Shown one piece after another: positions 672 through 17,312 of a stretch of DNA of 17,312 nucleotides (positions are counted from its first letter, which is position 1; every line of letters begins with the position of its first letter). Both the position numbers and the translations under genes were made by a program. This stretch comes from a virus. Lineage: Duplodnaviria; Heunggongvirae; Uroviricota; Caudoviricetes. The stretch covers positions 1-17,312 of IMG/VR virus record IMGVR_UViG_2531839532_000013, one strand, 5' to 3'. The notes beneath the pieces are model-generated. The model did no database searches and was not told where the DNA came from. It saw nothing but the letters and a program-made list of their open reading frames with translations.

Positions 672-683
672 ATCTGGTATACT
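672..683 (+). promoter_or_regulatory. Candidate ssrA promoter, extended -10 element (TGnTATACT) about 14 nt upstream of the mature tmRNA 5' end
   Basis: Sequence ctggtatact at 674-683 gives TG 675-676 and TATACT 678-683; no good -35 found, consistent with an extended -10 promoter. Position relative to the mature 5' end implies a short precursor leader. Inference only. Confidence 0.35.
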
Positions 684-697
684 TACCTTTACACATT

Positions 698-1060
698 GGG
701 GCTGATTCTGGATTCGACGGGATTTGCGAAACCCAAGGTGCATGCCGAGGGGCGGTTGGCCTCGTAAAAAGCCGCAAAAAATAGTCGCAAACGACGAAAA
801 CTACGCTTTAGCAGCTTAATAACCTGCTTAGAGCCCTCTCTCCCTAGCCTCCGCTCTTAGGACGGGGATCAAGAGAGGTCAAACCCAAAAGAGATCGCGT
901 GGAAGCCCTGCCTGGGGTTGAAGCGTTAAAACTTAATCAGGCTAGTTTGTTAGTGGCGTGTCCGTCCGCAGCTGGCAAGCGAATGTAAAGACTGACTAAG
1001 CATGTAGTACCGAGGATGTAGGAATTTCGGACGCGGGTTCAACTCCCGCCAGCTCCACCA
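698..1060 (+). ncRNA. ssrA: tmRNA (SsrA, 10Sa RNA), 363 nt, ending in CCA
   Basis: Starts GGGGCTGATTCTGGATTCGACGGG (tRNA-like acceptor 5' half), contains the tag-encoding frame, ends GGTTCAACTCCCGCCAGCTCCACCA (T-arm and acceptor 3' half); matches E. coli tmRNA as I recall it. Confidence 0.95.
787..819 (+). other. tmRNA internal tag reading frame (resume codon GCA to TAA) encoding ANDENYALAA
   Basis: GCA AAC GAC GAA AAC TAC GCT TTA GCA GCT TAA read directly at 787-819 inside ssrA. Confidence 0.9.
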
Positions 1061-1070
1061 AATAAATCAA

Positions 1071-1103
1071 GGGGTTACGTGAAAGCGTAGCCCCTTTTTC
1101 TTT
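1071..1103 (+). terminator. Rho-independent terminator of ssrA
   Basis: Stem GGGGTTACG (1071-1079) / CGTAGCCCC (1086-1094) with one G-U pair, loop TGAAAG, followed by TTTTTCTTT (1095-1103). Confidence 0.7.
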
Positions 1104-1203
1104 GGTAGTGGCGGCAAAATGGCGACAGACTTTTGCGTCCATCTTGCCTGTCGCCATCTTGAAATCATGCAAAGAGGTTTCACATGGAAGAACTTCACTT
1201 TGT

Positions 1204-2541
1204 TTACATCAATGCAAATGGTCGTATCTCCAGCACGCGCTGGATGGTTCCCATCGCATCCTTCGTCATCTGCTTTTCAATCACTTCAGGATTGAGTTTC
1301 AGCAGATTCATCCCTTCAAAGAAACTCTTGCTTTGCATGGTGGCAATGGACAATTCACGCACCATCGCGTTTGCTGCACTGGCTGCAACCTCTGGCGCAG
1401 CGCCCAGTGTCAGGAAGGTGGAACCCAGCGCCGCCGCTTTACGATAATCCAGACGGTCAGCCACACCGCCCAGACGTTGCATCACATCAATGATGTCTGC
1501 CCCTTTCGACATGGCGTTATCATCCAGATAGTTCAGCGCATCGCCGAGCTGTTCAATATTGCGGGTAGGTATTTTGTAGAGCTGGGCGATTTTCCCCAGA
1601 CTTTCTGACAGTTCATCCGCTGGCAGCTCAAAGGCTGTGGCCGCCTTTGCTGCCGTACTGGCGAAGGCCAGCAGGTCACGTTTCTGGTCTTCCCAGCTGT
1701 CGTCAGGGTTTGCGACGTTCATGCGCGCACCACCTTCAACCAGTGCAGCGAAATCCACCGCACCGTTTTCCATCGGCAACTGTTCGCTGGCAGCCTTGAT
1801 GGCATCCTGCATTTCATAAAAACGTGCAGTGCGGTTGCCATTATCGTCACGCAGGCCATTGACCTGCTTTGCCACACCTTTCATGGCATCTTCCATGCTG
1901 GTATAGCTTTTTACTGCCACCATCACTGGTGCGCCCATTGCCAGCCCTGCAGCCGTGGTGGTGGCTCCGGCACCTGCAATACGATCACGCACCTCCAGCG
2001 AACGGGCATAACTGGCACGCGCTGCATTCATCCTGCGCTGAGCTTCCCCCAGTCGCTTCAGCCGCGCCTCCTGTTTCGAAAGTTCCTGGTTATAACGTGA
2101 TGTTTCACGGGCTAAACGGGCAGTTGCTCCCGCATCGTCTTTCGCAGAAATTCCCGCCCGGTACAGTTCAGCACGCACAAGCGCCGTCTGCTGCTGCAGC
2201 TTTTTCTGGCGTTCTTCCAGGCGCTGAACAGCCAGCCGTTGACGGCCCAGAGCAACAACCTGACGTTGCGAAGGCGGCCCCATCGCTCCCAGTTCCTGAC
2301 TGAGCAAATTTGCACGCTGGCGGGCATAGTTCAGCCTGTCGCCTAATTTCTGATTTTCTGCCTGCAGCTTTCGGAAGCTGTCCAGACTGCTCCCGGCCTG
2401 ATCAAGCTGCTTTATTGCATCGCGGGATTTTTTGACAGCAGCAGCCAGTTCTCTTGAACTGGCCTGCGCAGATCGAAATGGGCGGGTGAGCTTGTCAACC
2501 GCATTAAGAATGACCTGCAGACGCAGGTTGTTATCACTCAT
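1204..2541 (-). pseudogene. Tail tape-measure protein (P2 gpT-like), N-terminal 445-aa fragment, C-terminally truncated
   Basis: ATG at 2541 overlaps the stop of the upstream -1 frame extension (ATGAGTGA), the P2 E'/T arrangement. N-terminal coiled-coil region rich in Q/R/A/L followed by a tape-measure-core-like segment (KAAALGSTFLTLGAAPEVAASAANAMVRELSIATMQ). The ORF stops at 445 aa, about 140 bp from the ssrA terminator, whereas P2-type tape measures are roughly twice that length. Confidence 0.65.
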
Positions 2542-2713
2542 CGTTGGCCCCGCTTCTCTGAATCGCTTTATACCGCCATTCCAGCACTTCGGTCAGCGGC
2601 ATAACGTCAGTAACGGATGGCGGCCAGTGAAAAATGGTGGCGATATCTGCCACCAGATCGTCAACCGTCAGGCTGTCGGAAAACCGGCAAGCACCGACTT
2701 CTTCAACAAAAAA
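2534..2713 (-). CDS. gpE' -1 frame extension (E+E' frameshift product), open from the slippery site to a TGA overlapping the tape-measure ATG
   Basis: Hand translation of the -1 frame from the heptamer (minus strand, 2713 to 2707) gives 57 sense codons (VEEVGACRFSDSLTVDDLVADIATIFHWPPSVTDVMPLTEVLEWRYKAIQRSGANDE) ending at TGA 2536-2534, which overlaps the T-fragment ATG at 2541-2539. Confidence 0.55.
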   Translation of the reverse strand, partial: FFVEEVGACRFSDSLTVDDLVADIATIFHWPPSVTDVMPLTEVLEWRYKAIQRSGANDE

Positions 2714-2892
2714 GTGACAACCTCAACCGACATGGCAGTGAGATCTGCCGGGTCCATCTCTGCAATTTCCTGTGCAGTCAGTGCCGGACTGGAGATGCGG
2801 GGGATCACGGTCATCATCGCGTTTACATCCATACCGCCTGTTGCACGCTGGCGGTAGTCCTGGCGGCTGTCTTCATGGCTCAGCTTGTCCAC
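2668..2892 (-). CDS. Tail assembly chaperone gpE-like ORF (possibly 5'-truncated); zero-frame product of the E/E' frameshift pair
   Basis: Small ORF immediately upstream of the tape-measure start on the same strand; contains slippery heptamer T TTT TTG twelve codons before its stop. The ORF-track start at 2892 is GTG; first ATG is at 2832. Assignment is by position and frameshift architecture, not by sequence identity. Confidence 0.5.
   Translation of the reverse strand: MDKLSHEDSRQDYRQRATGGMDVNAMMTVIPRISSPALTAQEIAEMDPADLTAMSVEVVTFLLKKSVLAGFPTA
2707..2713 (-). other. Programmed -1 ribosomal frameshift slippery heptamer TTTTTTG (X XXY YYZ form)
   Basis: Plus-strand caaaaaa at 2707-2713 reads T TTT TTG on the minus strand, in frame as ACT TTT TTG within the gpE-like ORF; the same heptamer is used by the P2 E/E' tail chaperone genes as I recall. 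Confidence 0.55.
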
Positions 2893-3617
2893 CTCAGCTG
2901 TGCCTGCAGGGCTGTCTCCAGCTCAGACAGGCGTTCTTCCTGTTCAGACAGGGATTTTTCGGTGCGCGCACTCAGGTTTTGCTGCTCAGTGGCAACCAGC
3001 TCCACGGCCTTATGCACATCAGAGAACCGGGCATCATCGGACTGCTCTTTTTTGGTGAACAGCGCCGTGACACGGGCAAACAGGGATGGTTTTTCGTCCT
3101 GGACTTCTTCCAGTTCGATCACCGTTTCCTCTGCAGCGGTAAAAAGATTGGCGGGATTCTGCTTGCGGTTTGCCAGCGGGTTATGGGCTGCACTGGCGCT
3201 GAATGTCAGCATTTCCGTACCCAGACTGGCGGGATCATCAGTGGCGGCCAGGCCAACCAGGTAGGCTTTGCCCGTATCAGCGAACTTCGGGCTGACTTCC
3301 ATAGAGGTGAATAATTTCTGGCCTTTTTTCACCAGTTCCACCAAGGACTCCGTTGGCTCAACGTCGGCATACAGCGCCATCTTGCCTGCCAGCGGACCTT
3401 CCGTGATTTCTTCAGCAAACAGCGCCGTCACCTTGCCGTAGCGGTTAAAGGTGCTGTCCGGAAGATAAGACTTGATGTGCTCAAGGTTAATCAGCGCGGT
3501 ATACACCGCCGGGTTGTAGCTGGCTGCCATCTGTTCCAGCCATTCACGCTGGATTTCACGTCCGTCGGTAGTGGCACCTTCCACCCCGATGCGAAAACGC
3601 TTTGCTTTCACTGTCAT
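2880..3617 (-). CDS. O: Capsid scaffolding protein gpO (P2 family), 245 aa; C-terminus probably altered by a deletion junction
   Basis: ATG at 3617 with GGAG upstream; protein shows the gpO pattern (RIGVEGATTDGREI..., INLEHIKSYLPD..., KAYLVGLAATDDPASLGTEMLTF, SDDARFSDVHKAVE). It is shorter than I recall for P2 gpO and ends in LRWTS directly overlapping the gpE-like ORF. Confidence 0.8.
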   Translation of the reverse strand: MTVKAKRFRIGVEGATTDGREIQREWLEQMAASYNPAVYTALINLEHIKSYLPDSTFNRYGKVTALFAEEITEGPLAGKMALYADVEPTESLVELVKKGQKLFTSMEVSPKFADTGKAYLVGLAATDDPASLGTEMLTFSASAAHNPLANRKQNPANLFTAAEETVIELEEVQDEKPSLFARVTALFTKKEQSDDARFSDVHKAVELVATEQQNLSARTEKSLSEQEERLSELETALQAQLRWTS

Positions 3618-3695
3618 GAGCCGTGCTCCGTTAGAAAAAACTTACTGGAGCCTTATGGTTGCGGTGATGGGGGCAGTGAAACAATGCGCGGTATT

Positions 3696-3713
3696 TGTAC
3701 CGACAACCACACA
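3696..3713. promoter_or_regulatory. TGT-N12-ACA dyad, the Ogr/B-type late-activator binding site of P2/186 late promoters, in the divergent O/P intergenic region
   Basis: TGT at 3696-3698, 12-nt spacer accgacaaccac, ACA at 3711-3713; centre lies about 87 nt upstream of the O start codon and 55 nt upstream of the P start codon. Confidence 0.45.
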
Positions 3714-3759
3714 AACCGCAGGCGGGGAAAGCCTTCATTCAAGGCTGTAGGTTTGTGCC

Positions 3760-5526
3760 ATGAACACCACACTGACACCCGCAGATCTCGATCCCCGTCG
3801 GCAGGCCATGCTGCTGTACTTTCAGGGATACCGCGTAGCCCGCATTGCTGAAATGCTGGGCGAGAAAGTTGCAACCGTTCACAGCTGGAAAAAACGCGAC
3901 AAGTGGGGTGACTATGGGCCGCTGGATCAGATGCAGCTCACCACCGCCGCACGCTACTGCCAGCTCATTATGAAGGAGCACAAAGAAGGGAAAGATTTCA
4001 AAGAGATTGACCTGCTGGCGCGCCAGTCGGAGCGCCACGCGCGGATCGGCAAGTTTAACAATGGCGGCAACGAAGCCGACTTAAACCCTAACGTCGCCAA
4101 CCGCAACAAAGGCCCGCGCCGTCAGCCGGAAAAGAATGTTTTCACCGATGAGCAGATTGAGAAGCTGGAAGAAATCTTCCATTCCTCCATGTTCAACTAC
4201 CAGCGCCACTGGTGGGAAGCCGGAAAAGCCAACCGCATCCGCAACCTGCTGAAGTCACGCCAGATCGGCGCGACCTTTTACTTTGCCCGTGAAGCCCTGA
4301 TTGACGCCCTGCTTACCGGACGTAACCAGATTTTCCTTTCCGCCAGCAAGGCACAGGCCCACGTCTTTAAGCAGTACATCATCGACTTCGCCAAAGAAGT
4401 GGAGGTGGAGTTGAAAGGCGATCCGATGGTGCTTCCTAACGGGGCCACGCTTTACTTCCTCGGCACCAATGCCCGCACTGCCCAGAGTTATCACGGCAAC
4501 CTGTATCTGGATGAATATTTCTGGATACCGAAATTCCAGGAGCTGCGCAAAGTGGCTTCCGGTATGGCTATTCACAAAAAATGGCGACAAACCTATTTTT
4601 CCACGCCATCCAGCCTGACTCACAGTGCTTATCCGTTCTGGTCCGGTGCGCTGTTCAATCGTGGGCGCAACAAAGCCGATAAGGTGGACATCGACCTGTC
4701 CCACAGCAATCTGGCCCCCGGCCTGCTGTGCGCAGACGGGCAGTACCGCCAGATAGTCACTGTGGAAGATGCGGTGCGCGGCGGCTGTAACCTGTTCGAC
4801 CTCGACCAGTTGCGCATGGAGTACAGCCCGGACGAATACCAGAACCTGCTGATGTGCGAGTTTGTGGACGATCTCGCGTCCGTGTTTCCGCTCAGCGAGC
4901 TGCAGGCGTGCATGGTGGACAGTTGGGAAGTCTGGACCGACTTTCATGCTCTGGCCCTGCGCCCGTTTGGCTGGCGCGAAGTGTGGATCGGTTATGACCC
5001 GGCAAAAGGTACGCAGAACGGCGACAGCGCCGGATGCGTGGTGGTGGCACCGCCAGCCGTGCCGGGCGGTAAGTTTCGCATTCTTGAGCGTCACCAGTGG
5101 CGCGGGATGGACTTCCGCGCCCAGGCTGACGCAATCAAAAAACTGACCGAGCAGTACAACGTGACCTACATCGGCATCGACTCAACCGGCGTTGGTCACG
5201 GGGTTTACGAGAACGTGAAAGCGTTCTTTCCTGCCGTCCGGGAGTTTGTCTACAACCCCAACGTTAAAAACGCCCTGGTACTCAAGGCCTACGACATTAT
5301 CAGCCACCGCCGTCTGGAGTTTGACGCCGGACATACCGACATTGCGCAGTCATTTATGGCAATCCGTCGCGCCACCACCGCCAGTGGCAACCGCCCGACC
5401 TATGAAGCCAGCCGCAGCGAAGAAGCCAGCCACGCCGATCTGGCATGGGCAACAATGCACGCACTGTTTAACGAACCGCTGCAGGGCGAATCCGCCAATA
5501 CCAGCAATATTGTGGAGATTTTTTGA
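3760..5526 (+). CDS. P: Terminase large (ATPase/nuclease) subunit gpP, 588 aa
   Basis: ATG at 3760; strong resemblance to P2 gpP throughout (QAMLLYFQGYRVARIAEMLGEKVATVHSWKKRDKW, KSRQIGATFYFAREALIDALLTGRNQIFLSASKAQAHVFKQYII, WIGYDPAKG...DSAGCVVVAPP); stop TGA overlaps the Q start. Confidence 0.92.
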   Translation: MNTTLTPADLDPRRQAMLLYFQGYRVARIAEMLGEKVATVHSWKKRDKWGDYGPLDQMQLTTAARYCQLIMKEHKEGKDFKEIDLLARQSERHARIGKFNNGGNEADLNPNVANRNKGPRRQPEKNVFTDEQIEKLEEIFHSSMFNYQRHWWEAGKANRIRNLLKSRQIGATFYFAREALIDALLTGRNQIFLSASKAQAHVFKQYIIDFAKEVEVELKGDPMVLPNGATLYFLGTNARTAQSYHGNLYLDEYFWIPKFQELRKVASGMAIHKKWRQTYFSTPSSLTHSAYPFWSGALFNRGRNKADKVDIDLSHSNLAPGLLCADGQYRQIVTVEDAVRGGCNLFDLDQLRMEYSPDEYQNLLMCEFVDDLASVFPLSELQACMVDSWEVWTDFHALALRPFGWREVWIGYDPAKGTQNGDSAGCVVVAPPAVPGGKFRILERHQWRGMDFRAQADAIKKLTEQYNVTYIGIDSTGVGHGVYENVKAFFPAVREFVYNPNVKNALVLKAYDIISHRRLEFDAGHTDIAQSFMAIRRATTASGNRPTYEASRSEEASHADLAWATMHALFNEPLQGESANTSNIVEIF

Positions 5527-6566
5527 TGGGAAAGAGTAAGAAGAACCGAGCTGCGGCGACGAAACAGATCCAGCTTAAAAGTCAAACTACAGCCGAAGCA
5601 TTCAGCTTCGGCGATCCCGTTCCTGTTCTGGACCGCCGTGAACTGCTGGACTATGTGGAATGCGTACAGATGGACCGTTGGTATGAGCCGCCCGTCAGCT
5701 TTGACGGACTGGCGCGCACCTTCCGCGCCGCCGTGCATCACAGTTCCCCGATTGCAGTAAAGTGCAACATTCTGACCAGTACCTATATCCCTCATCCGCT
5801 GCTCAGCCAGCAGGCTTTTTCGCGTTTTGTGCAGGACTATCTGGTATTTGGTAACGCCTACCTGGAGAAACGCACGAACCGATTCGGTGAAGTTATCGCC
5901 CTTGAGCCTGCGCTGGCAAAATACACCCGACGCGGGTTAGACCTGGATACCTACTGGTTTGTGCAATACGGTATGACAACCCAGCCGTATCAGTTCACGA
6001 AAGGCAGCATTTTTCATCTAATGGAACCGGATATTAATCAGGAGATCTACGGCCTGCCCGGTTATCTTTCTGCAATTCCGTCTGCCCTGCTCAACGAGTC
6101 CGCCACGCTGTTCCGTCGAAAGTATTACATTAACGGCAGTCATGCAGGCTTCATCATGTACATGACCGATGCCGCGCAAAACCAGGAGGATGTGAACAAC
6201 CTCCGCAATGCGATGAAAAGCGCCAAAGGACCAGGTAACTTCCGCAATCTGTTTATGTACTCGCCTAACGGCAAAAAGGACGGGCTTCAGATCATCCCGT
6301 TGTCAGAAGTCGCGGCGAAGGATGAGTTTCTGAATATCAAGAACGTGAGCCGGGACGACATGATGGCAGCACACCGAGTGCCGCCGCAGATGATGGGGAT
6401 TATGCCTAATAATGTAGGGGGGTTTGGGGATGTGGAGAAAGCCAGCCGGGTATTTGTTCGGAATGAACTGATGCCTTTACAAAAACGCATTGCCGAAATT
6501 AATGAATGGTTAGATGAAGAGGTAGTCAAATTTGAATATTATGGCTTAGAAAATAATCAGTCATAA
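5526..6566 (+). CDS. Q: Portal vertex protein gpQ
   Basis: ATG at 5526 overlaps the P stop (TTGATGG); the ORF-track start at 5523 is a TTG. Co-oriented with and coupled to gpP and divergent from gpO, as in P2. Confidence 0.85.
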   Translation: MGKSKKNRAAATKQIQLKSQTTAEAFSFGDPVPVLDRRELLDYVECVQMDRWYEPPVSFDGLARTFRAAVHHSSPIAVKCNILTSTYIPHPLLSQQAFSRFVQDYLVFGNAYLEKRTNRFGEVIALEPALAKYTRRGLDLDTYWFVQYGMTTQPYQFTKGSIFHLMEPDINQEIYGLPGYLSAIPSALLNESATLFRRKYYINGSHAGFIMYMTDAAQNQEDVNNLRNAMKSAKGPGNFRNLFMYSPNGKKDGLQIIPLSEVAAKDEFLNIKNVSRDDMMAAHRVPPQMMGIMPNNVGGFGDVEKASRVFVRNELMPLQKRIAEINEWLDEEVVKFEYYGLENNQS

Positions 6567-6572
6567 AAAAGA

Positions 6573-6605: not shown

Positions 6606-6621
6606 ATTATCTGTATTATCT

Positions 6622-7090: not shown

Positions 7091-7151
7091 GTGTAAGTTA
7101 TCAATTTCAGAATATATCTACATTAATTGCAAGTAAACATGTTTGCGCGCG

Positions 7152-7170
7152 CTCGTATCCCCGCCACGCC
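7152..7170. other. Candidate cos (cohesive end) site of the P2/186 family
   Basis: CTCGTATCCCCGCCACGCC at 7152-7170 matches the reverse complement of the 186-type 19-nt cohesive end as I remember it at about 15 of 19 positions, including the CCCCGCCACGCC core; it lies between Q and the A side, where cos sits in P2. Confidence 0.45.
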
Positions 7171-7215
7171 TGCCCGCTTTATGTAGTGGTTTTCATGCAG
7201 GAGCATGATCTACGC

Positions 7216-7239
7216 AAAAGCCCGCCAGTTCTGGCGGGC
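7216..7239 (-). terminator. Terminator-like GC hairpin with U-run on the minus strand, just beside the cos candidate
   Basis: Stem GCCCGCCA (7220-7227) / TGGCGGGC (7232-7239), loop GTTC; plus-strand AAAA at 7216-7219 gives a U-run after the hairpin on the minus strand. Confidence 0.4.
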
Positions 7240-7512
7240 CTTAGCAAAAACGATCCTCAAACGATCATGCAATCTCATGCAGCATAGACATGCACAGACG
7301 AGTAAAGCGAATCGGACTTTACGCAAGGTGAACTCCTCAGCGGGCATAATCAGTATGTCGGAAGATCTCTAAAAATAAATAATTCGGTTAACAGGTATGC
7401 TTACAAAAGCATATATTTGATTAAAAATCATGTAAGGGGGAGGATCTCAAACTGAATCGCCACGGGTTTTACAAATTTCGATAGTCTCTCTAACGTTTCG
7501 GCTGAGGTCAAA

Positions 7513-8331: not shown

Positions 8332-8341
8332 AAAGGTCCCC

Positions 8342-8683: not shown

Positions 8684-11098
8684 TTAATACAGGTTTCGCC
8701 ACTTATCATCTTCCTGCAAACGCTGGTTCCGATAGAAGATACGCAGGCCTGCTCCTGACGGAATACTGCCGCCGCGAAGGAGTAAATCGACCTCTTTCTC
8801 GCTGCCATTAAATCCTCTGGACTTCAGTTCATAGACTAGCTGCTGTCGCTGATGGTCTGTAATTCGCTGTTTGTAGTCTTTACGCCGTTTCGGTTTCACC
8901 AGGCGTAACCTTGCAGCCAGTTCCCGGCGCTCTTTTTTGCTCATACTGTGCAGGTAATCGTGCAACTCCTTGTCATCCATGCGGGTAATGTCCGTCCTGG
9001 TATCCCCATCAGCTGATTTGTCTTTCCCTTGTTGGTTCAAATTTTCAGCAAGGGGACAGTTATTGCCACGAGTCCAAGGGGCGCAAGCGCCCTGGTCGGC
9101 TGCCGCCTCCTGAACGTCAACGGCTTTACGAACCATTTTCCACTTCACTGCATGAGTGCAGATCTTGCCCTCTGCAATGGGTGACCAGATGCCATAAATA
9201 CGAATACCGTGATCGCCATAGGCGGTCGGCTCTTCGTTGATTTCATAAGCGGTTCTGATGAGGTGATATTTACGGGGAACCAGTACGCCGCCCTGCTTCA
9301 TGATGTAGGTAGCAAAACAACCAGCATCAGCAGCAGCCAGAATGGCATCAAGACGCGGGTTATCCAGTACCGGCGCACCTGCTTTTTTGTCACCCTGTTG
9401 CCTTGCCACCTGACCAGCCAGCAAGCGAAGTTCACGGTAAGCCTGACGTCCCGGAATACCAAAGAAGCGGAATTGCTGTACACGATGCAGAGACGCCCAG
9501 GCATTAACGTATTCAGCGTTATCACGCAAGGATTTACCCGTTTCCTTACTGATCTCGCCAGCCAGACCACGCCCGTCAATGTTCTTACTGATGTATTTCG
9601 CGATGTAGCTTGTCGGCGTTCCTTTGCGCGGGTTTATCAGCTCAGACTTAAAGCGTGGCTCCGTGTTATTGCCCAGCTCCTCGCGGTCTTCACGGATGGC
9701 AAACTTACGCAGTAATGCAGTGATGGCGCGGCGGTCTTTTTTGCGCATGAAACACAATAGGTGCCAGTGAACGGTGCCGTCATGATGAGGCTCAGCCACC
9801 CGCACGCCATACCAGCGCAACCCGGCTTTATGCATAGCCTTACGAAATGCAGCAAACATGCCGACCAGATAATCGCTGCTTTGTCTTACCGTCGCATTTG
9901 TCCAGGTCGGGTTGGGCCTGCCGTTATTTAGCGTGGAATGGAAACGTGACGGACAGGTGATGGTGTAGAAAACGGCGCAGTCACCGCGCATTTCCGCGAT
10001 AAGCTCCAGACCTTTAACACAGGCCATCATCTCATTGCGGCGATGCGCAGGGTTGCTGCTGCTGGCGTTTACCACATCCTCCATGTCCAGTGTGTCGCCG
10101 TCTTCGTTCACCAGTTCATGAGAACGGAAAAACTCCAGTGACTTGCGGCGCTGCTCACGTTTATGCATCACGGCTTCATAGCTAACATAGGGAGATGCTT
10201 TTTTGCTGACCAGGCAGACAGCACGCAACTGCTCTTCCCGCCATTCGCAACGCATCTTCCATAATTTCCGATACCACCAGTCGGCGCACAACATACGCGC
10301 CAGCGAACCCGGAATGAGTTCATAGGGCACGGGTTTGCGGCGGTTTCTTTTCCGACGAAGTTGCTCAAACGCAGGCGGTATGACATCCAGTCGCAGGGTT
10401 TCCGCTGCTACCTTTTCCCATGTCTTGCGGATTTCTTCTGGCTTAACATCATCGGTGGCATACAAATCGCCACAAGCGGCATCAAGGCACATGCTCATAT
10501 GCGCAGCTACCAGGGTGGACAGGCGTTTTACCTGATCCTGACTCATTTCAGGCAGAATCAGCAGGCCGTCCAGCCCTTCATGGCTTGCCATAAAGCGAAA
10601 AGAAGTGGATAGCTGACTGTCGCGTACATGCTCCAGCCGTTCCAGACATGGCTTAATCGTCTTACGCAAATAGCGGGAATAAGCCTTTGGCCTGCCCAGT
10701 CTGCTGAAGTATTCAATACGTTGCATCAGCGGCTTGCTGATATGGGAAGGCTGGGCGTTAACGTCCGCCAGAATGACCATGTCTGGATTAAAACGCTGCT
10801 GCTCATGCGCCAGCTTTGCCCGGCTAATAAGCTTATCCTGCTCCATTTCGCGTTGGACAGGATCACGGGATTCATTAAAGAAATAACGCTCCCAGACCTG
10901 ATCACTCAGTGCCTCGCGGCGCAGCTGTTCCTGCTCGTTATCGGTAGCGTACAGAGTGATCAGGTTTGAAAGCGCAGAAACCGGCGCAACTTCCGCCGGG
11001 TCCAGATAAGGGTTAATAGCCTTTTTCGGGCTGTTCCATGAGAATGCTGCGGCGACCTCGTTAACGCCGCTGCAGTTGTTCATATCGGCATGACTCAT
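8684..11098 (-). CDS. A: Replication initiation endonuclease gpA (rolling-circle initiator), 804 aa
   Basis: ATG at 11098 overlaps the Dam stop (minus-strand ATGA); HUH-type motif within [10 protein letters not shown]; size and position at the end of the early operon match P2 gpA / 186 A. Confidence 0.85.
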
Positions 11099-11952
11099 GC
11101 ACGTACTCCGTACACGGCAGAACTATCCACGCCACGCGAATAATCAAATCCCACCCAGCAGCGCGGCCCGGAAACAGCAATGATTTCTGTTGCTGATTTA
11201 CCCTCGCCAGCTGCCACACCGATGCTGCGTTTTACCTTGATATAGTGGTGAGTAAAATTGCGATACAGCGAACGGATCAGGGATGTGTCACTGTTAGAAA
11301 CAATGACCGGATGTCCTTCTGATGACCGATGTTCAAGAACGGATGCAAGGTGATACTGGTCATCTTCAGTGAAACCGTCAGTGTGATAACCGGAAAACGT
11401 ACCGTCATACGGCGGATCGCAATACACCACATCCCCCGCCTTCAACATCGCCAGCGTTTCATCAAAGCTGGCGCAGATAAACGTTGCCCGCTGGGCTTTT
11501 TCTGCAAATGCGCGAATTTCTTTTTCAGGGAAATACGGATTTTTATAATTACCGTAGGGAATGTTGAAATGCCCGCTCTTGTTATAGCGACATAAACCAC
11601 GGTAACCGTGACGATTGAGATACAGGAAATATACCGCTTTCATGAAATCAGTAATTTCAGTTGAGTAATTAAACTCCTGCCTTATGTTGTAATAAGCCAC
11701 CTCCCTGTTTGCGATCTCAAATAAAACTCTGGCGCGAGATATAAATGATTCACAATCAGCAGCAACCTTTTTATAGAGGTTGATTAAATCAGGATTAATA
11801 TCCGCAACAAGATAGCTGGGGTACTCCGTCTCCATCATCACTGCACAGGAACCCGCGAAAGGTTCAACCAGTCGCGGGCCAGCAGGAAGGTGTTTTTTCA
11901 GTTCGGACATAATTGCGGTTTTATTTCCCGCCCATTTCAGGATGGTGCTCAT
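11095..11952 (-). CDS. DNA adenine methyltransferase (Dam family), about 285 aa
   Basis: ATG at 11952 with GGAGG upstream (track start 12012 is TTG); N-terminal LKWAGNK, AdoMet-binding-like EPFAGS, and catalytic DPPY motif; an unusual C-terminal tail reaches the A start. Confidence 0.85.
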
Positions 11953-12176
11953 ACAGCACCTCCGTTGTAATGTTTGCCTTTCAGCTCTGCGATTTCCTGA
12001 CAGGTAATGCAAAGCTGCACTCCAGGAATGGCGCGGCGGCGTGCTGGCGGAATTGGCACTTCACATTCAATGCAAAGCACGCGAGACACGCCCGGTGTTT
12101 TGGCACGGGCAGCACGAATATGGCGCTGGCGTTCTTCTTCAACGCGCTGCTGTACGAGATCCATTGCATCAGCCAT
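11949..12176 (-). CDS. TraR/DksA-type C4 zinc-finger protein, 75 aa
   Basis: CxxC-N17-CxxC (CIECEVPIPPARRRAIPGVQLCITC); start ATG overlaps the upstream stop (TAATG) and its stop overlaps the Dam ATG (ATGA). Confidence 0.7.
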   Translation of the reverse strand: MADAMDLVQQRVEEERQRHIRAARAKTPGVSRVLCIECEVPIPPARRRAIPGVQLCITCQEIAELKGKHYNGGAV

Positions 12177-12409
12177 TAGTGGATCTCCTGCGCTTCGTTC
12201 TGGATTGCTTCAGCGGTCACACGCAGCAGTTCTGCCGCTTCGACGTGGTTTAGCTGGCGGGATGTGATATGACACGCAAGACTATCAAGGCGGGCAGCCA
12301 TTGCTTCAGCCCTTGCCCGGCGTTCTTCCAGACGAGCCTCTGTCAGTAAAATATTTAGCCCTACGTCATCCGGTCCGGTTTTAGTCGTGAGGGTTTCAAT
12401 ATTACGCAT
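12176..12409 (-). CDS. Hypothetical early-operon protein, about 77 aa
   Basis: ATG at 12409 preceded by AGGAG (track start 12415 is TTG); translationally coupled to the zinc-finger gene. Confidence 0.5.
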   Translation of the reverse strand: MRNIETLTTKTGPDDVGLNILLTEARLEERRARAEAMAARLDSLACHITSRQLNHVEAAELLRVTAEAIQNEAQEIH

Positions 12410-12476
12410 AATCAATTCTCCTGAATTTAGATAAAGGGATGCCCGGCGGGTTTACGCCATTAATTTCATTAGCTGG

Positions 12477-12818
12477 TTAATTCGGCATGGTTAGCCGTCT
12501 GGGAAATAAGCTCACCACTGCACGAAAATGATTCATTGCTTTAATCAACTCCCGCTTTTCGTCAGTGGTCAGCTCATTAATGCTGATGCTATGACGTTCA
12601 GCTGGAATTTTTGCCATAAAGAATATGGCAGCCAGTGCCCGTTTATTTTGTTCGCTATTAATATCCCGTGGATCACGCATATCTTTAATAAACCGTTCAA
12701 GCTCTGACTCAATATTAAGACCAAAAACTTTCGCCCTTAACTCCGCAATATGATTAAGTCCATTCAGGCGTTCACCGGGGCTTAATGGAACAGTCGCCGC
12801 AGCGCCTTCAATAGCCAT
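12477..12818 (-). CDS. Hypothetical early-operon protein, 113 aa
   Basis: ATG at 12818 preceded by GGGGGA; same strand and operon as the flanking early genes. Confidence 0.55.
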   Translation of the reverse strand: MAIEGAAATVPLSPGERLNGLNHIAELRAKVFGLNIESELERFIKDMRDPRDINSEQNKRALAAIFFMAKIPAERHSISINELTTDEKRELIKAMNHFRAVVSLFPRRLTMPN

Positions 12819-12982
12819 TTGTTCCCCCGTTTTTTCGTAGATAGTTCTGCCAGCAATTCATCTTGTGAACGGCACGGATGCCAGCGTTTACCATCCTCAC
12901 CCATGATCCAGCCGTGACCGTAGTGCATTGCCGGGCTTTGTTTAACCAGCAGCGATGCAAATGATGGTTCTTTCGTAAGCAT
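12782..12982 (-). CDS. Hypothetical small early protein, about 66 aa
   Basis: ATG at 12982 preceded by GAGGTG, 7 nt after the CII-like stop; overlaps the next gene's start by 37 nt. Confidence 0.4.
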   Translation of the reverse strand: MLTKEPSFASLLVKQSPAMHYGHGWIMGEDGKRWHPCRSQDELLAELSTKKRGNKWLLKALRRLFH

Positions 12983-12989
12983 AAGCACC

Positions 12990-13499
12990 TCACAGCAAAC
13001 CGAATGAAGCACCGAGGCCAGTCACGGTATCAACTGCACTCGCCATCGCAGGGTTAGCCTGTAAACGGGCCTGCAGTGAAACAGCAGCCAGCGCCATCAG
13101 TCGTGTTACAGAGTTAATGCTGCTGATAGCATCACGACGACCTGCACTGGTTTTTACATCGCCAGATACCGCACCTGCAGCAACACGCCCGATCTCTGCG
13201 GTTGCACTCATGACGTAATGCGGCAGTTTCTCTTTTGCTACCTCATTAATCGGTACACATGGCAGGCAGTGAATCTGTGCCAGAAAACCATCTATCAGCG
13301 TTGAATCTTCAGTCAGATCGGTAAGCAGCCAGATTTCTGGCGCATTGAGCTGATGCGGTTGATCTGGGTTGAGTTTGTTTCGCAGAGTCTGGACATTCAT
13401 TCCTGCACGTTCTGCCAGCTTCGCCATATTGTGACGAAGTGCAAAAGCTCTACAGGCTTCATCAAAATGCGGGTGTTTGGAAATCTTATAATCAAACAT
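12990..13499 (-). CDS. CII-like transcriptional activator (phage 186 CII-like), 169 aa
   Basis: ATG at 13499 preceded by AGGGGG; second gene of the leftward early operon after the Cox/Apl-like gene; HTH-like segment; strong resemblance to 186 CII as I recall it (MFD...SKHPH.DEACRAFA.RHNMAKLAE.AGMNVQTLRNKLNP...). Confidence 0.6.
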   Translation of the reverse strand: MFDYKISKHPHFDEACRAFALRHNMAKLAERAGMNVQTLRNKLNPDQPHQLNAPEIWLLTDLTEDSTLIDGFLAQIHCLPCVPINEVAKEKLPHYVMSATAEIGRVAAGAVSGDVKTSAGRRDAISSINSVTRLMALAAVSLQARLQANPAMASAVDTVTGLGASFGLL

Positions 13500-13531
13500 G
13501 CTACCCCCTTAGAAAGTTCTCATAATTGAAC

Positions 13532-13774
13532 TCACTTACCAACAATGACGCGGAAGTTGGAATGACCGAGGGATTCACGGACCTGATCGGTTTTGTACAT
13601 TAAATAACGCAGACTTACGCGGCCTTTGTTTTTTTCTTTCTTGACCATGTATTTAGCAAGCTGACCATGGTGAATTTTTTGATACACGGAGCCGCGGGAG
13701 ATACCTTCCCATTCCGCGAACTCTGCAGGCGTAGCCATCTCTTTTGGTACACGAATTGAAATATCAGTGCTCAT
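13532..13774 (-). CDS. Cox/Apl-like excisionase / early transcriptional regulator, 80 aa
   Basis: ATG at 13774 preceded by GGGAG; first gene of the lytic operon, facing the repressor gene; HTH-like segment. Confidence 0.6.
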   Translation of the reverse strand: MSTDISIRVPKEMATPAEFAEWEGISRGSVYQKIHHGQLAKYMVKKEKNKGRVSLRYLMYKTDQVRESLGHSNFRVIVGK

Positions 13775-13809
13775 AGTGCAGTATCTCCCGATTAAGGTTT
13801 GGTTTACGT

Positions 13810-13876
13810 CGTTTTATCTCGTTTTACTTGATTCAATATTTGATACATAGAGATACTACGATCCAATATTTGATAC
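13810..13876. promoter_or_regulatory. Immunity-region operator candidates: two 13-bp direct repeats CAATATTTGATAC and tandem CGTTTTA repeats
   Basis: CAATATTTGATAC at 13834-13846 and 13864-13876 (30-bp spacing), overlapping the spacer and downstream side of the leftward promoter; CGTTTTA at 13810-13816 and 13820-13826. Confidence 0.5.
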
Positions 13877-13881
13877 GTCAA
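13853..13881 (-). promoter_or_regulatory. Strong sigma70 early lytic promoter (leftward): -35 TTGACG, 17-nt spacer, -10 TAGTAT
   Basis: On the minus strand TTGACG (plus 13876-13881), spacer TATCAAATATTGGATCG, TAGTAT (plus 13853-13858); drives the Cox/Apl-like to A operon. Confidence 0.55.
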
Positions 13882-13893
13882 CAGGATTAAAAA

Positions 13894-14526
13894 ATGATAC
13901 AGGTAAAGGCTGGAGAGAATACAGGGGGAAGAGAGGCTATCCATAGACTAATGGCAGCCTATGATTTCAAGTCCAGACAGCAACTTTGCGATCACTTAGG
14001 CGCATCAAAAAGCACCATGGCAAACAGATACTTAAGAGATAGTTTTCCTGCAGAGTGGGTGATTCAGTGCGCCTTGGAAACAGGAGTTTCTTTACTGTGG
14101 CTAACCACCGGACAGGGAGAGCCAGGTCCAAACATTAAACCTAAAAAAAATATCAATTCCGTGAACTCCAGCAAGGTTGTACCTCTTTCTGAACTAGTAT
14201 CTCCTGAAATTGACAAGGCGACTCTCAACGGTGGTTTATTGGTCGATGCTGGAAAAGCAATCATTGATAGCAGCATACTCCCCTCAGACTCAAGCAACCT
14301 ACTGCTGGTGACTACTTCTGGTGATTCTTATTTAATAGATCGCAACCAAACACCACCAGTAAATGGTATGTGGTTAGTCGATATCGACGGGATAAAAAGC
14401 ATTGTTAAATTGACTCGGCTCCCGGGAAACAAATTAGTAGTGCATCAGGATGATTCATCGTTTGAGTGCGGTCTGGATGACATTGAGGTAGTAGGCCGCG
14501 CACTGAAAATCATTAAGAGCCTTTGA
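13894..14526 (+). CDS. CI-type immunity repressor (phage 186 CI-like), 210 aa
   Basis: ATG at 13894 with AGGA upstream; N-terminal HTH region (...STMANRYLRDSFPAEWVIQCALETGVSLLWLTTGQGEP) resembles 186 CI; immediately upstream of and co-oriented with int. Confidence 0.75.
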   Translation: MIQVKAGENTGGREAIHRLMAAYDFKSRQQLCDHLGASKSTMANRYLRDSFPAEWVIQCALETGVSLLWLTTGQGEPGPNIKPKKNINSVNSSKVVPLSELVSPEIDKATLNGGLLVDAGKAIIDSSILPSDSSNLLLVTTSGDSYLIDRNQTPPVNGMWLVDIDGIKSIVKLTRLPGNKLVVHQDDSSFECGLDDIEVVGRALKIIKSL

Positions 14527-14527
14527 T

Positions 14528-15541
14528 ATGACCATCAGAAAACAGCCGAACGGAAAATGGTTGTGTGAGTGCTATCCCAATGGACGCAATGGCAAGCGCG
14601 TGCGTAAGCAATTTGCTACGAAAGGCGAAGCCATTGCGTTTGAAAGCTTCACAATGGAAGAAGTGAATAAAAAACCGTGGTTGGGTGAAAAGGATGATCG
14701 GCGACGCCTATCAGAATTAATTGAGCTTTGGTATTCCCTGTATGGTCAAACACTCGCAGACCCCAAGCGCCTCATGGCGAAACTTAGAATTATCTGTAAT
14801 GGTCTAGGCGATCCCATCGCCTCAGAACTGACAGCTGGTGACTTTACAAAATACCGCGAAGCACGGTTAAAAGGTGAAATACGAAATGAAGATGGCACAC
14901 TTATGTCGCCCGTAAAGCCCCGTACGGTAAACCTTGAACAGCGCAATCTATCATCTGTGTTCGGTACATTAAAAAAACTAGGACACTGGTCAGCACCAAA
15001 CCCGCTGGCAGGACTTCCGACCTTCAAAATTGCCGAAGGTGAGCTGGCTTTTCTTTCCACGGACGAAATCAAGCGCCTGTTGGCGGCATGTGCTGAATCT
15101 CAAAACCCTAGCTTACTAATGATTGCAAAAATATGCCTAGCTACTGGCGCACGGTGGAGTGAAGCCGAAAATCTGCAGGGCCACCAAATATCGAAATACC
15201 GAATTACTTATACAAAAACAAAAGGCAAGAAAAACAGAACAGTACCCATATCACAGGAGCTGTATGACGAACTCCCAAAGAACAGAGGGAAGTTATTCTC
15301 ACCATGTAGAAAAGCCTTTGAACGAGCAGTAAAACGGGCAGGTATAGATCTACCGGATGGCCAATGCACCCACGTGCTGCGACATACGTTTGCTAGCCAC
15401 TTTATGATGAATGGCGGGAACATACTTGTGCTAAGGGATATTTTGGGACATTCGGATATCAAGATGACCATGGTTTACTCACATTTCTCACCAGATCATC
15501 TTGAAGATGCCGTTACTAAGAACCCATTAAACTTGATATAA
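14528..15541 (+). CDS. int: Tyrosine integrase, P2/186 type, 337 aa
   Basis: ATG at 14528, 1 nt after the repressor stop; strong resemblance to P2 Int including GRNGKR near the N-terminus, LATGARWSEA, HVLRHTFASHFMMNGG and the catalytic-tyrosine region MVYSHF. Confidence 0.92.
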   Translation: MTIRKQPNGKWLCECYPNGRNGKRVRKQFATKGEAIAFESFTMEEVNKKPWLGEKDDRRRLSELIELWYSLYGQTLADPKRLMAKLRIICNGLGDPIASELTAGDFTKYREARLKGEIRNEDGTLMSPVKPRTVNLEQRNLSSVFGTLKKLGHWSAPNPLAGLPTFKIAEGELAFLSTDEIKRLLAACAESQNPSLLMIAKICLATGARWSEAENLQGHQISKYRITYTKTKGKKNRTVPISQELYDELPKNRGKLFSPCRKAFERAVKRAGIDLPDGQCTHVLRHTFASHFMMNGGNILVLRDILGHSDIKMTMVYSHFSPDHLEDAVTKNPLNLI

Positions 15542-15554
15542 AACAGCCAAAATT

Positions 15555-17312
15555 CTATTTCATCAAGTAATCCAATTCATCCTTCATAGGTATAACTTGC
15601 TCATAAAGTCTATGGTAGGATTTTCCAATTGCACCCCTAAATTGAATAAGTTTAGGGGAAAAGCTACCGATATTAATAATATGTTCTTGCGCTATACCAG
15701 GATATGGATCGATAAAAATAATCTCTGTCATACCTAACTGATAAGCTTTTTTAGCACAAAGTTCACAAGGGCTAGCTGTAGTATATAGTTTCCCTCCATT
15801 AATACCGACCCCACCATATTTGGCCAATTGCAAAAAAGCATTCTCCTCTGCGTGCAATGCACGGGTATGCACTTGATTCCCTTTCTTTTCATCATCAAGG
15901 CTGTTGTGAATATCTTTAAAACAATATGGCAAATTAAGTCCTTTAAAAACAGTAGAACTTGAATCACTCGCCCTTATTTTTATTAAATTTTCTTTAACTT
16001 TACTCCTAAATTTTGTATTACTTCGTTCGTACAGGCTATATGTTCCCTCATCAAAATCATGCAATAACCCATCAAATGACCTCATAGAACAAGGAACTTG
16101 ACCTTTTGCTACATCGTTCCAACCAACTGACTTGATAGAGTTATCATTATCTGTCACAACCGCCCCTACTTGCCTAGATATACATCCAGAATTTAGTTTT
16201 ACAGTATATGCAACTTGCATAACCCTTTCCATGGCGGTAGGAGATATTAATCCAGGGTGTTGCATTAATGATACATACCACGCAATTTGTGCTTTGAGAA
16301 AATTATTATTATCAAATTCTTTTTTAGGGTTAAAAAAATGTATATCTGAAATTTCAATGCATTTTTTTACATTAGGATTAGTAAGATGATTATACTCGCC
16401 ATCTCCTTTACCAGATTCTTCATCATTAATTTTTTTTATCTGTTCCTCTGAGAACTTATGTAATTTCTTTAAATATCTGGTTCGATGTTCATCTGGTGCA
16501 TTTATAGAAACCAGATGGAATGCAGCATATCTATCTTTGAAGAATTTAGCTTCATACGGGTTACGTATCGCATCAATGACTATATACGCTTTATTATTCT
16601 TTACTTTTCTAATTATTTTAATAACACGATTAATTGTTTCAGGTAAATGAAAAACAGCCTTTGGAATAAAGTCTTGATTTTCATAATCTACATCAACCTT
16701 CCCTATTCTTCTAATTGACTTTCCTGCTGACTGATATAGCTCAATATATAAACCTGGCTCTAGTTCATTTAATTCCCTTTTAAAATCCCGTGTAAATTTT
16801 CGAGTAAGAGTTAATATCCTAATAAAGGTATCTTTCCCCCTGCCTTTAAAGTCAATCTCATCATCATGATTAAGAAGATTTTTTATCACCTTAAGATATT
16901 TTATCTTCAACAAACTTTTAGCGAACACACCATTAACAACCAGTTTCTTGGCTGCCTTAAAGGAAATCGAATTTTCTTTTTTATCGGGGATTTTACTTGC
17001 AGAAAACTGAATGAATTTAGCTAAGGCCGATGGAGATAAAAGGAGCAAATATATTGAAATGAGATCACTGACCTTTATCGAATAGAAGTTCTTCCAATGA
17101 GTCTCTGCAAAATTTTTTACTATTTCATAACGCCGCAAATCCAATCCTTTATAATACTCAGCCAAGACGTTACTATCTGGAAAAGATATTTTTTTTTGTT
17201 CTAAAATATTTGCTGCAGTAGTACATCCTGAGCCAGTTCTCCCAGTTAAACCAATAAGAATAAATTGACTATTTTCTAAAAAAAGCTCACTAATAAATTT
17301 GTGTTCTCTCAT
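15555..17312 (-). CDS. P-loop nucleotide-kinase-like / dCMP-deaminase fusion protein, 585 aa (AvcD / defensive dCTP-deaminase-like)
   Basis: ATG at 17312-17310, the last three bases of the window, so the true start could lie upstream. N-terminal P-loop GLTGRTGSGCTT (residues 21-32); C-terminal zinc-deaminase motif HAE (487-489) ... PCELC (515-519) followed by the dCMP-deaminase-like tail AKKAYQLGMTEIIF. Strongly AT-rich; convergent with int, stop codons 13 nt apart. Confidence 0.7.
   Translation of the reverse strand: MREHKFISELFLENSQFILIGLTGRTGSGCTTAANILEQKKISFPDSNVLAEYYKGLDLRRYEIVKNFAETHWKNFYSIKVSDLISIYLLLLSPSALAKFIQFSASKIPDKKENSISFKAAKKLVVNGVFAKSLLKIKYLKVIKNLLNHDDEIDFKGRGKDTFIRILTLTRKFTRDFKRELNELEPGLYIELYQSAGKSIRRIGKVDVDYENQDFIPKAVFHLPETINRVIKIIRKVKNNKAYIVIDAIRNPYEAKFFKDRYAAFHLVSINAPDEHRTRYLKKLHKFSEEQIKKINDEESGKGDGEYNHLTNPNVKKCIEISDIHFFNPKKEFDNNNFLKAQIAWYVSLMQHPGLISPTAMERVMQVAYTVKLNSGCISRQVGAVVTDNDNSIKSVGWNDVAKGQVPCSMRSFDGLLHDFDEGTYSLYERSNTKFRSKVKENLIKIRASDSSSTVFKGLNLPYCFKDIHNSLDDEKKGNQVHTRALHAEENAFLQLAKYGGVGINGGKLYTTASPCELCAKKAYQLGMTEIIFIDPYPGIAQEHIINIGSFSPKLIQFRGAIGKSYHRLYEQVIPMKDELDYLMK

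Follow-up and report, generated by a model that had tools for sequence, protein, structure and literature searches.

How did a prophage of the P2 family come to have gpO lying next to the tail genes gpE and gpE′ and to a shortened tape-measure gene, and why does what is left of it persist? Here, we address both questions for one window, by which is meant the whole 17,312-nt stretch of DNA that was analysed, by comparing it with near-isogenic intact prophages. The explanation that we hold with high confidence is that the late arm of the prophage collapsed through two deletions by illegitimate recombination, and that a 16-nt frameshift followed in a sublineage.

Identity and Integration Site

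On the basis of its sequence, the element is assigned to the P2/186/Fels-2-type prophages (Peduoviridae, Wadgaonvirus-like), at the 3′ end of the E. coli ssrA gene. The window is 100% identical to E. coli strain 2726950 over the 9.6 kb common to both, and E. coli strain 300709 shows 99.9% identity. The integration target, ssrA (tmRNA, tag peptide ANDENYALAA; positions 698..1060, plus strand; ARAGORN and RefSeq annotation), is also the site at which Fels-2 integrates. Its 46-bp 3′ end constitutes the attL core (1016..1061, plus strand; blastn self-match 46/46), and attR, a perfect 46/46 direct repeat of this core, is found ca 240 bp past the end of the window (locus L001, 23551-23596). The remnant is thus flanked on both sides by att repeats and occupies an integration site that is already known. 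An ssrA terminator-like hairpin with a T-run (1069..1096, plus strand; terminator scan, 12-pair stem) sits on the prophage side of the att core, and a CP4-57-type integrase island lies in tandem after attR.

Matches to the Pfam families GPO, TAC_7, P2_GpE, PhageMin_Tail, Terminase_5 and GPA are all found in the element. The order E-E′-T is present on the minus strand (matches to Phage_TAC_7, Phage_P2_GpE and PhageMin_Tail), with E and T truncated, and Q, P and the remnant of O have the canonical divergent P2 arrangement according to Pfam. GpA is represented by an 804-aa product matching PF05840 (Phage_GPA), and CI and a site-specific integrase are annotated as intact. To the ICTV-classified Wadgaonvirus wv5004651, nucleotide identity reaches 99.3% across 1,607 bp and 94.6% across 2.7 kb. 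The gene ogr, for the Ogr/Delta zinc-finger late activator, is absent in the window and kept in the prophages G5, 500465-1, KL53, WS4437A-1, E1433 and NCTC9038 that are discussed below; its absence is a secondary loss, and the P2-family ancestry is therefore not in doubt.

Two Large Deletions

The near-isogenic intact ssrA prophages of E. coli G5 (NZ_CP060065.1) and "Escherichia phage 500465-1" (NC_049342.1) were employed as references. A blastn comparison of the window with G5 gives three collinear blocks with breakpoints at 1227/1228 and 2832/2833, and the same breakpoints are obtained with 500465-1. Window positions 1-1228 correspond to 1680-2907 of the G5 composite (100% identity), 1227-2833 to 7001-8607 (99.7%), and 2832-17312 to 23363-37856 (99.5%). 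The remnant is a deletion product made up of these blocks, ca 18.8 kb of a ca 35-kb prophage being gone. Collinearity maps exactly two large deletions, one internal and one terminal, as had been proposed in a first-pass annotation of this DNA, and the alignment with complete P2-type genomes that it recommended places both junctions to the base. The remaining unit of 16,519-16,535 bp amounts to 47% of the 35.4-kb G5 prophage, and the attL-to-attR length is fully explained by the two deletions (35,384 − 18,848 = 16,536).

Deletion A comprises 4,093 bp, and its junction at 1227..1228 has a shared TC of 2 bp (blastn block ends and three-way junction alignment). It takes tape-measure codons 439-1025 (57% of T), U, D, ogr and most of a BRCT-like accessory ORF; the earlier suggestion that a terminal deletion removed the rest of T, U, D and the late activator is thus borne out. 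What is left of T is a 445-aa ORF (1204..2541, minus strand), which had rightly been recognized as a tape-measure homologue, with a PhageMin_Tail match (Pfam, 2.3e-14) and 99.7% nucleotide identity to T of G5. Since full-length relatives in the cluster have 1025 aa, this ORF is a genuine N-terminal tape-measure fragment, and PGAP flags T as a pseudogene, "missing C-terminus". The gene was said to stop at 445 aa some 140 bp from the ssrA terminator. It does stop at 1204, 143 bp from the end of ssrA, but only 438 of the 445 codons (1228-2541) are truly gpT, the other 7 being out-of-frame codons from the neighbouring ORF remnant. That neighbour is the BRCT-like ORF, of which the first 15 codons are present (1184..1228, plus strand; collinear with G5 locus L006, 2863-3345). 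Its intact form, the attL-proximal 160-aa WP_000391793.1 in G5, gives weak BRCT/PDC-S48 matches; deletion A starts 45 bp inside the ORF and destroys it.

Deletion B, with its junction at 2832..2833 and a shared TA of 2 bp (blastn block ends and junction alignment), has a size of 14,755 bp relative to G5 and 13,044 bp relative to 500465-1. The losses are the last 10 codons of O, N, M, L, X, the holin, the endolysin, LysA/B/C, R, S, V, W, J, I, H, G, the invertase, FI and FII, together with codons 1-45 of E. In the sister prophages, which are 99.5% identical, N, M and L occupy the corresponding position; the window lacks them because this deletion took that DNA. The internal deletion had been described as running from N to FII; those genes are indeed gone, but the end of O and the start of E went with them. 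No longer homology, IS elements or repeats are seen at the deletion endpoints in the junction alignments, and the mere 2 bp in common at each junction point to illegitimate recombination.

The same 60-nt junction sequences recur, in two allelic states, at 13 loci, which come from at least 10 assemblies or runs that are independent of one another. The carriers differ by 0-2 SNPs per 8.5 kb; besides one complete genome, they include four drafts at NCBI and at least six assemblies made independently from SRA runs of different projects. Of the 5,426 complete genomes of E. coli, one has the junctions and none represents a single-junction intermediate.

A Third Lesion in gpO

The gpO reading frame had been reported to run into the gpE-like ORF at 2880-2892. 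O is joined to E, but the real junction lies at 2832/2833, 47 nt away. The overlap itself exists and is caused by a separate lesion that was overlooked earlier, namely a 16-nt deletion, AGTTCGTTAAAAGCTG, at 2893..2894 (pairwise alignment with strain 300709, G5 and 500465-1). It frameshifts gpO, thereby generating the overlap of the two ORFs, and is found in 10 of the 13 junction-bearing loci. In the alleles without it, an in-frame 321-aa fusion of O(1-267) to E(46-100) is encoded (translation of locus L001, 8668-9633; WP_174715446.1). The 16-nt lesion arose after both large deletions, in the sublineage containing the window.

The gpO remnant is accordingly a 245-aa ORF (2880..3617, minus strand; Pfam Phage_GPO, 8e-105, profile positions 2-233 of 268), while the O-derived DNA spans 2833-3617 and, prior to the frameshift, accounted for 267 of the 277 codons; PGAP flags GPO as a pseudogene, "incomplete, missing C-terminus". 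From gpE, the tail assembly chaperone, codons 46-100 of 100 remain (2668..2832, minus strand; Phage_TAC_7 in Pfam and junction mapping), the N-terminal 45 codons (45%) having been deleted, and the 74-aa ORF at 2668-2892 matches Phage_TAC_7 only over profile positions 30-78 of 79. The gpE′ extension ORF, whose product is the frameshift partner of gpE, is intact (2534..2653, minus strand; Phage_P2_GpE, 1.6e-20) and is the same RefSeq protein as in G5, WP_000763311.1.

One could ask whether the O::E fusion and the T stump are new functional proteins. We reject this option, as both would depend on a promoter that needs an activator, the gene for which is deleted; the fusion is, moreover, already frameshifted in most isolates. 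A search for sigma-70-like promoters of the remnant ORFs in 1000-3800 gave 0, to be compared with 1.3 expected by chance. The remnants of T, E′, E and O are pseudogene debris.

Taken as a mechanism, the prophage integrated at ssrA in the E. coli clone of strains 2726950 and 300709 before the deletions. The 4,093-bp deletion extended from the attL-proximal accessory ORF to tape-measure codon 438, removing ogr, D, U and 57% of T, and a deletion of 13-15 kb extended from gpE codon 46 to gpO codon 267, removing the tube, sheath, fibre, baseplate and lysis genes together with L, M and N. The later 16-nt deletion then frameshifted the in-frame gpO::gpE fusion in the sublineage. The product, of 16.5 kb, still has its two att sites, int, CI/CII, A, P, Q, a probable cos and the dCTP deaminase. 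The missing virion and lysis genes are N, M (small terminase), L, the holin, endolysin and spanins, and those for baseplate, fibres, sheath, tube, U and D. As these are known essentials in P2, neither particle formation (capsids, tails) nor lysis is expected. Without Ogr, the late promoters would be silent, and excision and replication may still be within the abilities of the remnant.

Retained Genes

The terminase large subunit gpP (3760..5526, plus strand; Pfam Terminase_5/6N/6C) and the portal gpQ (5523..6566, plus strand; Pfam Phage_portal, 3e-18, and annotation) are intact. In the O-P intergenic region, a TGT-N12-ACA dyad can be read from the sequence at 3696..3713, a putative site for late activators of the Ogr class, as in P2 late promoters. 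The dyad is kept although ogr is deleted.

A conserved non-coding block at 7143..7295, between variable cargo genes, shows 90-97% identity to Fels-2, SopEPhi, RE2010 and Klebsiella P2-like phages. It is probably the cos region, judging from a 186-like GGCGTGGCGGGGA motif spotted by eye on the minus strand. The canonical P2 cos (GGCGAGGCGGGGAAAGCAC) has no match within 3 mismatches, and a shorter P2 cos core gives chance-level matches only.

The early/lysogeny module (8684..15541) is intact, with no pseudogene flags in RefSeq and 99.5% identity to G5. It comprises the replication endonuclease gpA (8684-11098, minus strand), CI (13894-14526, plus strand) and the integrase (14528-15541, plus strand), and also Dam, TraR, Fil, CII and a Rha/Apl-like gene. 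Between int and attR lies an intact cargo gene for an anti-phage dCTP deaminase (15555..17312, minus strand), a predicted member of a defence family by its model matches (PADLOC dCTPase, 3e-146; Pfam dCMP_cyt_deam_1, 4.8e-15). No pseudogene flag is attached to integrase, CI, CII, gpA, gpP, gpQ or the cargo, and several of these share their RefSeq protein with the intact prophage of G5. The statement that integrase, immunity, replication and cargo are intact can be kept as far as pseudogene flags go, but one small accessory ORF near attL is destroyed.

Comparison with Related Elements

G5 and 500465-1 have the same ssrA site, gene order and att core as the window. G5 is 99.3-100% identical to it at the nucleotide level in all retained blocks, and 500465-1 is 99.3-99.5% identical in the two left-hand blocks and only 94.6% in the O-P block; the gpP (WP_001737413.1), CI and integrase proteins are identical between the window and G5. 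The window differs from both in the 18.8 kb that is gone and in the 16-nt frameshifting deletion in O. G5 has defects of its own: an IS1 sits within one of its fibre-assembly genes, and its dCTP deaminase is frameshifted.

The likeness to P2, 186 and Fels-2 consists in Q-P being divergent from O-N-M-L, in FI-FII-E-E′-T-U-D-ogr at the att-proximal end, and in a 186-type CI/CII/Fil/DinI-like early region. Unlike these three, the element has a gene for a dCTP deaminase in the interval from int to att, and it is not a viable phage, having lost most of its late genes.

Different late-region deletions at ssrA are present in at least four further lineages of E. coli (KL53, WS4437A-1, E1433/E1620 and NCTC9038). 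Like the window, they show internal late deletions and keep Q, int and the early region, along with a cargo gene between int and att that varies among them. Their breakpoints are independent: in G5 coordinates, 4026-24003 in KL53, 9031-24861 in WS4437A-1 and 8952-23945 in E1433, compared to 2908-7000 and 8608-23362 in the window. Only the lineage of the window, among these five, has also lost ogr and kept an isolated T′-E′ island between two deletions.

A preprint (bioRxiv 10.64898/2026.02.27.708500) reports defective P2-like elements whose defence genes are nearly identical and apparently functional, and puts 3% of P2 defence systems between int and att; these elements resemble the window in having lost late regions while the defence genes are intact. 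The dCTP deaminase and degraded P2 elements are not mentioned by Rousset et al. 2022 (PMC9122126). The K-12 cryptic prophage CP4-57 is likewise a particle-incompetent remnant at ssrA with an integrase and accessory genes. It is, however, old, heavily eroded and unrelated, whereas the present remnant arose very recently and otherwise has 99.5% identity to a prophage that looks functional. Membership among the P4-like phage satellites was considered and rejected, as there are no satellite-specific genes and the size is 16.5 kb compared to the typical ca 11 kb; no sid, psu, delta or alpha primase gene is found in the annotated 16.5-kb element, all genes being P2-type.

The element is an ordinary defective P2-family prophage, the damage of which is already flagged in public annotation, and it matters little beyond bookkeeping, as a clean case in which the disarming of a P2-family prophage can be followed at base resolution. 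It is well documented thanks to the near-isogenic intact references and the order of events, with the 16-nt lesion after the large deletions. Together with the four other ssrA prophages with independent deletions, it is one more anecdote for a pattern already known, in which late genes are lost and immunity, integration and defence cargo stay. For annotation, the lesson is that a "445-aa tape measure", a "245-aa GPO" and a 74-aa ORF are pseudogene debris and not novel proteins.

Alternative Explanations

It has been suggested that the remnant is retained for its cargo. Selection would in that case keep the dCTP deaminase, superinfection immunity through CI and other hotspot genes and shed the lysis and structural genes, i.e. 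a domestication. This is plausible, and the dCTP deaminase is indeed intact in the window and frameshifted in the intact G5 prophage; all 5 of the 5 independent ssrA lineages have lost late genes and kept the stretch from Q to int and an int-att cargo gene, and the elements of the above preprint point in the same direction. The clone is, on the other hand, very young, with no more than 2 SNPs per 8.5 kb, and rare (1 in 5,426 complete genomes), so that its intact genes need no selection to explain them; selection has had too little time to leave a trace, and the divergence is too small for dN/dS. Furthermore, the late region makes up ca 70% of the prophage, and random deletions will therefore fall there most often, while loss of cI with replication or lysis genes still present would be lethal and hence never observed. 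Target size and the lethality of immunity loss could thus explain the late-region loss equally well. Considering also that deletion A destroyed one accessory ORF, we regard selection for the cargo as a possible but rather doubtful cause, perhaps one chance among several.

Another option is that the remnant is a helper-dependent mobile element that a superinfecting P2-like phage would excise, replicate and package. The att cores are perfect, int, CI, the Rha/Apl-like gene, gpA, gpP and gpQ are intact, and the conserved block at the expected cos position and the dyad in the O-P intergenic region are kept. As the unit is 47% of the G5 prophage, a dimer would measure ca 33.1 kb, near the P2 genome size, and packaging might involve such a ca 33-kb form. 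If the helper supplied Ogr and the structural proteins, the dCTP-deaminase gene could spread, and the case would show the birth of a satellite from its helper phage by deletion. From the sequence we judge this scenario improbable. All occurrences of the remnant are at ssrA, in a single clone whose flanks are identical, with no sign of horizontal spread, and it is without satellite genes such as sid, psu, delta or primase; in addition, its CI immunity would probably block closely related helpers, and the cos assignment is inferred.

A further alternative is that an inversion or translocation split the prophage and relocated the missing genes, leaving the strain particle-competent. This is very improbable: the T′-E′ block keeps its native order and orientation between the junctions, and the attL-to-attR length is exactly accounted for by both deletions. 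In 300709, the window and the 900-3400 query find only two matching places each, one being this locus and the other, most likely, the repeat at attR, a result that covers the retained genes and argues against a second close P2-like copy but does not bear on the deleted DNA. Finally, an assembly artefact through repeat collapse or a contig misjoin, which the first-pass annotation had raised and to which one Logan contig (L017) ending exactly at junction B might point, can be dismissed, as the junctions have just 2 bp in common, so that no repeat is available to collapse, and as their recurrence in the complete genome, the four NCBI drafts and the at least six SRA-run assemblies, among at least 10 independent assemblies or runs, excludes misassembly.

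Results and Discussion

The window opens in the E. coli chromosome with smpB (1-483) and ssrA (698-1060, ARAGORN), after which the prophage begins. It is 99.9% identical to strain 300709 (NZ_CP025903.1), the best complete-genome match, from which it differs by three substitutions (8283, 8339 and 17192) and one 16-nt gap; across the 9.6 kb that it has in common with AQED01000130.1 of E. coli 2726950 (GCA_000356145.2), identity is 100%. After ssrA, the minus strand carries, in order, a 445-aa ORF (1204-2541; Pfam PhageMin_Tail, 2.3e-14), a 39-aa gpE' (2534-2653; Phage_P2_GpE, 1.6e-20), a 74-aa ORF (2668-2892) whose match to Phage_TAC_7 is confined to the C-terminal portion (profile 30-78 of 79), and a 245-aa ORF (2880-3617; Phage_GPO, 8e-105, profile 2-233 of 268), from which the gpP terminase (3760-5526) and gpQ portal (5523-6566) diverge. 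These Pfam matches confirm the anatomy given in the first-pass annotation, namely ssrA followed by tape-measure-, gpE- and gpO-type ORFs. The damage is already flagged by public annotation, PGAP listing T and GPO in this prophage as pseudogenes 'missing C-terminus'.

Two prophages of the same type, intact or nearly so, occupy the same ssrA site: Escherichia phage 500465-1 (NC_049342.1) and the prophage of E. coli G5 (NZ_CP060065.1). Blastn of the window against the G5 composite yields three collinear blocks, in which window 1-1228 corresponds to composite 1680-2907 (100%), 1227-2833 to 7001-8607 (99.7%) and 2832-17312 to 23363-37856 (99.5%), and the comparison with 500465-1 gives identical window breakpoints. 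The two large deletions that had been proposed are thus both mapped to the base against the two references.

Deletion A (4,093 bp) removes ogr, D, U and tape-measure codons 439-1025. It also takes most of a 160-aa ORF that lies between attL and ogr in all intact relatives (G5 locus L006, 2863-3345) and of which only the first 15 codons survive (1184-1228). This ORF, labelled 'DNA ligase' in the phage record, has weak BRCT and PADLOC PDC-S48 matches and is possibly a further accessory or defence gene. Deletion B measures 14,755 bp against G5 and 13,044 bp against 500465-1. It removes the last 10 gpO codons, N, M, L, X, the lysis genes (holin, endolysin, LysA/B/C), R, S, V, W, J, I, H, G, the fibre invertase, FI, FII and gpE codons 1-45. 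In three-way alignments, the ends of each junction share only 2 bp ('TC' at 1227-1228, 'TA' at 2832-2833), and neither junction carries an IS element or a repeat, a pattern characteristic of illegitimate recombination.

A third lesion lies within the gpO remnant, where 16 nt (AGTTCGTTAAAAGCTG), present in 300709 and 500465-1, are missing at 2893/2894; the G5 alignment over the block containing this site is likewise gapped. In the allele lacking this lesion, gpO codons 1-267 are in frame with gpE codons 46-100, giving a 321-aa ORF (RefSeq WP_174715446.1), and this in-frame state is most simply a one-in-three coincidence. In the window, the resulting frameshift ends gpO' at 2880, and the 74-aa ORF starts with GTG at 2892 and reads across the junction into gpE. 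This explains the overlap at 2880-2892 that had been taken for the point where O meets E; the overlap exists, but the true junction lies 47 nt beyond it.

Fifteen contigs encode precisely this 445-aa stump, including its 7 junction-specific C-terminal residues, and 10 encode the 245-aa gpO'. Among their sources are the complete 300709 genome, at least six independent assemblies of SRA runs and four draft assemblies from NCBI. All 13 loci that are informative by length (L001, which reaches past the window end, L007-L016 and the window) have identical 60-nt sequences spanning both junctions, and divergence of the carrier isolates from the window is limited to 0-2 substitutions per 8.5 kb. Deletions A and B are therefore real and mark one young clone; misassembly is dismissed by the identity of the junctions among many independent assemblies. 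The 16-nt deletion is carried by 10 of the 13 loci, as well as by the short contig L017, and is absent from the other 3, so it arose later, within the clone, where both alleles circulate. Among 5,426 complete E. coli genomes, both junctions occur only in strain 300709 and no genome has a single one. L017 itself (Logan ERR2789507, equal to window 2832-6115) is a short-read contig ending exactly at junction B; this end may be an assembly-graph branch, caused for example by the presence of another P2-like element or by a mixture of populations in the sample.

We now turn to what is left. Perfect 46-bp att cores bound a unit of ~16.5 kb, compared to 35.4 kb in G5. gpP, gpQ, gpA, Dam, CII, Fil, a Rha/Apl-like protein, CI and the integrase are free of pseudogene flags, and G5 shares several of them as identical RefSeq entries. 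P2 cannot do without N, M, L, its tail genes or its lysis genes, and every late promoter in it requires Ogr. By analogy, the remnant would be unable to make particles or to lyse its host, and expression of P, Q and the debris ORFs would be expected only if a helper brought an activator. No sigma-70-like promoter was found in window 1000-3800, and a TGT-N12-ACA dyad persists between O and P.

The dCTP-deaminase defence gene between int and attR (15555-17312; PADLOC 3e-146) is intact, whereas its G5 counterpart (locus L004, 20740-22494) is annotated with a frameshift in a prophage that is otherwise intact. A preprint reports this position as a minor P2 defence hotspot (10.64898/2026.02.27.708500). 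The gene found here differs in other relatives: WS4437A-1 has an HNH protein and KL53 a hypothetical protein of 352 aa. The Q-A hotspot (6622-8632) holds small low-GC ORFs, none with a PADLOC match: a DUF6953 ORF (6622-6912), a weakly DUF2158-like one (6881-7090), a 141-aa ORF with no family match (7513-7938), a DinI-like protein (within 8098-8403) and a 62-aa ORF. The view that integrase, immunity, replication and cargo are intact holds in its main part, except that one accessory ORF, that next to attL, is lost.

It has been suggested that the remnant is retained by selection for its cargo, which we consider plausible but rather unlikely. At least four further E. coli lineages have independent late-region deletions of this prophage family at ssrA, namely (in G5 coordinates) KL53 (4026-24003), WS4437A-1 (9031-24861), E1433/E1620 (8952-23945) and NCTC9038 (several, including 5469-15792). 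The O'-to-FII' deletion of E1433 closely parallels deletion B, with a junction overlap of 3 bp. All four have lost the central late genes and kept Q, the early region, int and an int-att cargo gene, which speaks for such selection, as does the deaminase being intact here and frameshifted in G5; the window also matches a known pattern, in which defective P2 elements keep their defence genes (10.64898/2026.02.27.708500). None of this proves selection, however: the clone is too young for purifying selection to show, the late arm makes up ~70% of the target and is the most frequent site for random deletions, deletions removing immunity would probably be lethal and so escape observation, and one accessory ORF was itself lost.

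A non-coding block of ~150 bp (7143-7295), flanked on each side by variable low-GC cargo, is 90-97% conserved in Fels-2, SopEPhi, RE2010 and P2-like phages of Klebsiella and Yersinia; its minus strand holds GGCGTGGCGGGGA, and the block probably represents cos. It is very improbable that the 16.5-kb remnant bearing it is still mobilisable by a P2-like helper. The remnant is an ordinary, recently disarmed P2-family prophage.

Directly after attR, past the window end (L001 23551-29328), another island follows, which has an integrase of the CP4-57 type, a serine recombinase and two ParB-like genes, so that integrated elements stand in tandem at ssrA. G5 has a third, degenerate att-like repeat (composite 43607-43680; 90.7% to window 1048-1122). 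Finally, the RefSeq 'complete genome' of 500465-1 (NC_049342.1; Peduoviridae, Wadgaonvirus) is a prophage excerpt with ~9 kb of host genes (smpB, ratA, bamE, recN, nadK, grpE, ffh) and an IS100 insertion, and several of its products appear to be misnamed: the tube protein is listed as 'head closure', the BRCT-like ORF as 'DNA ligase'.
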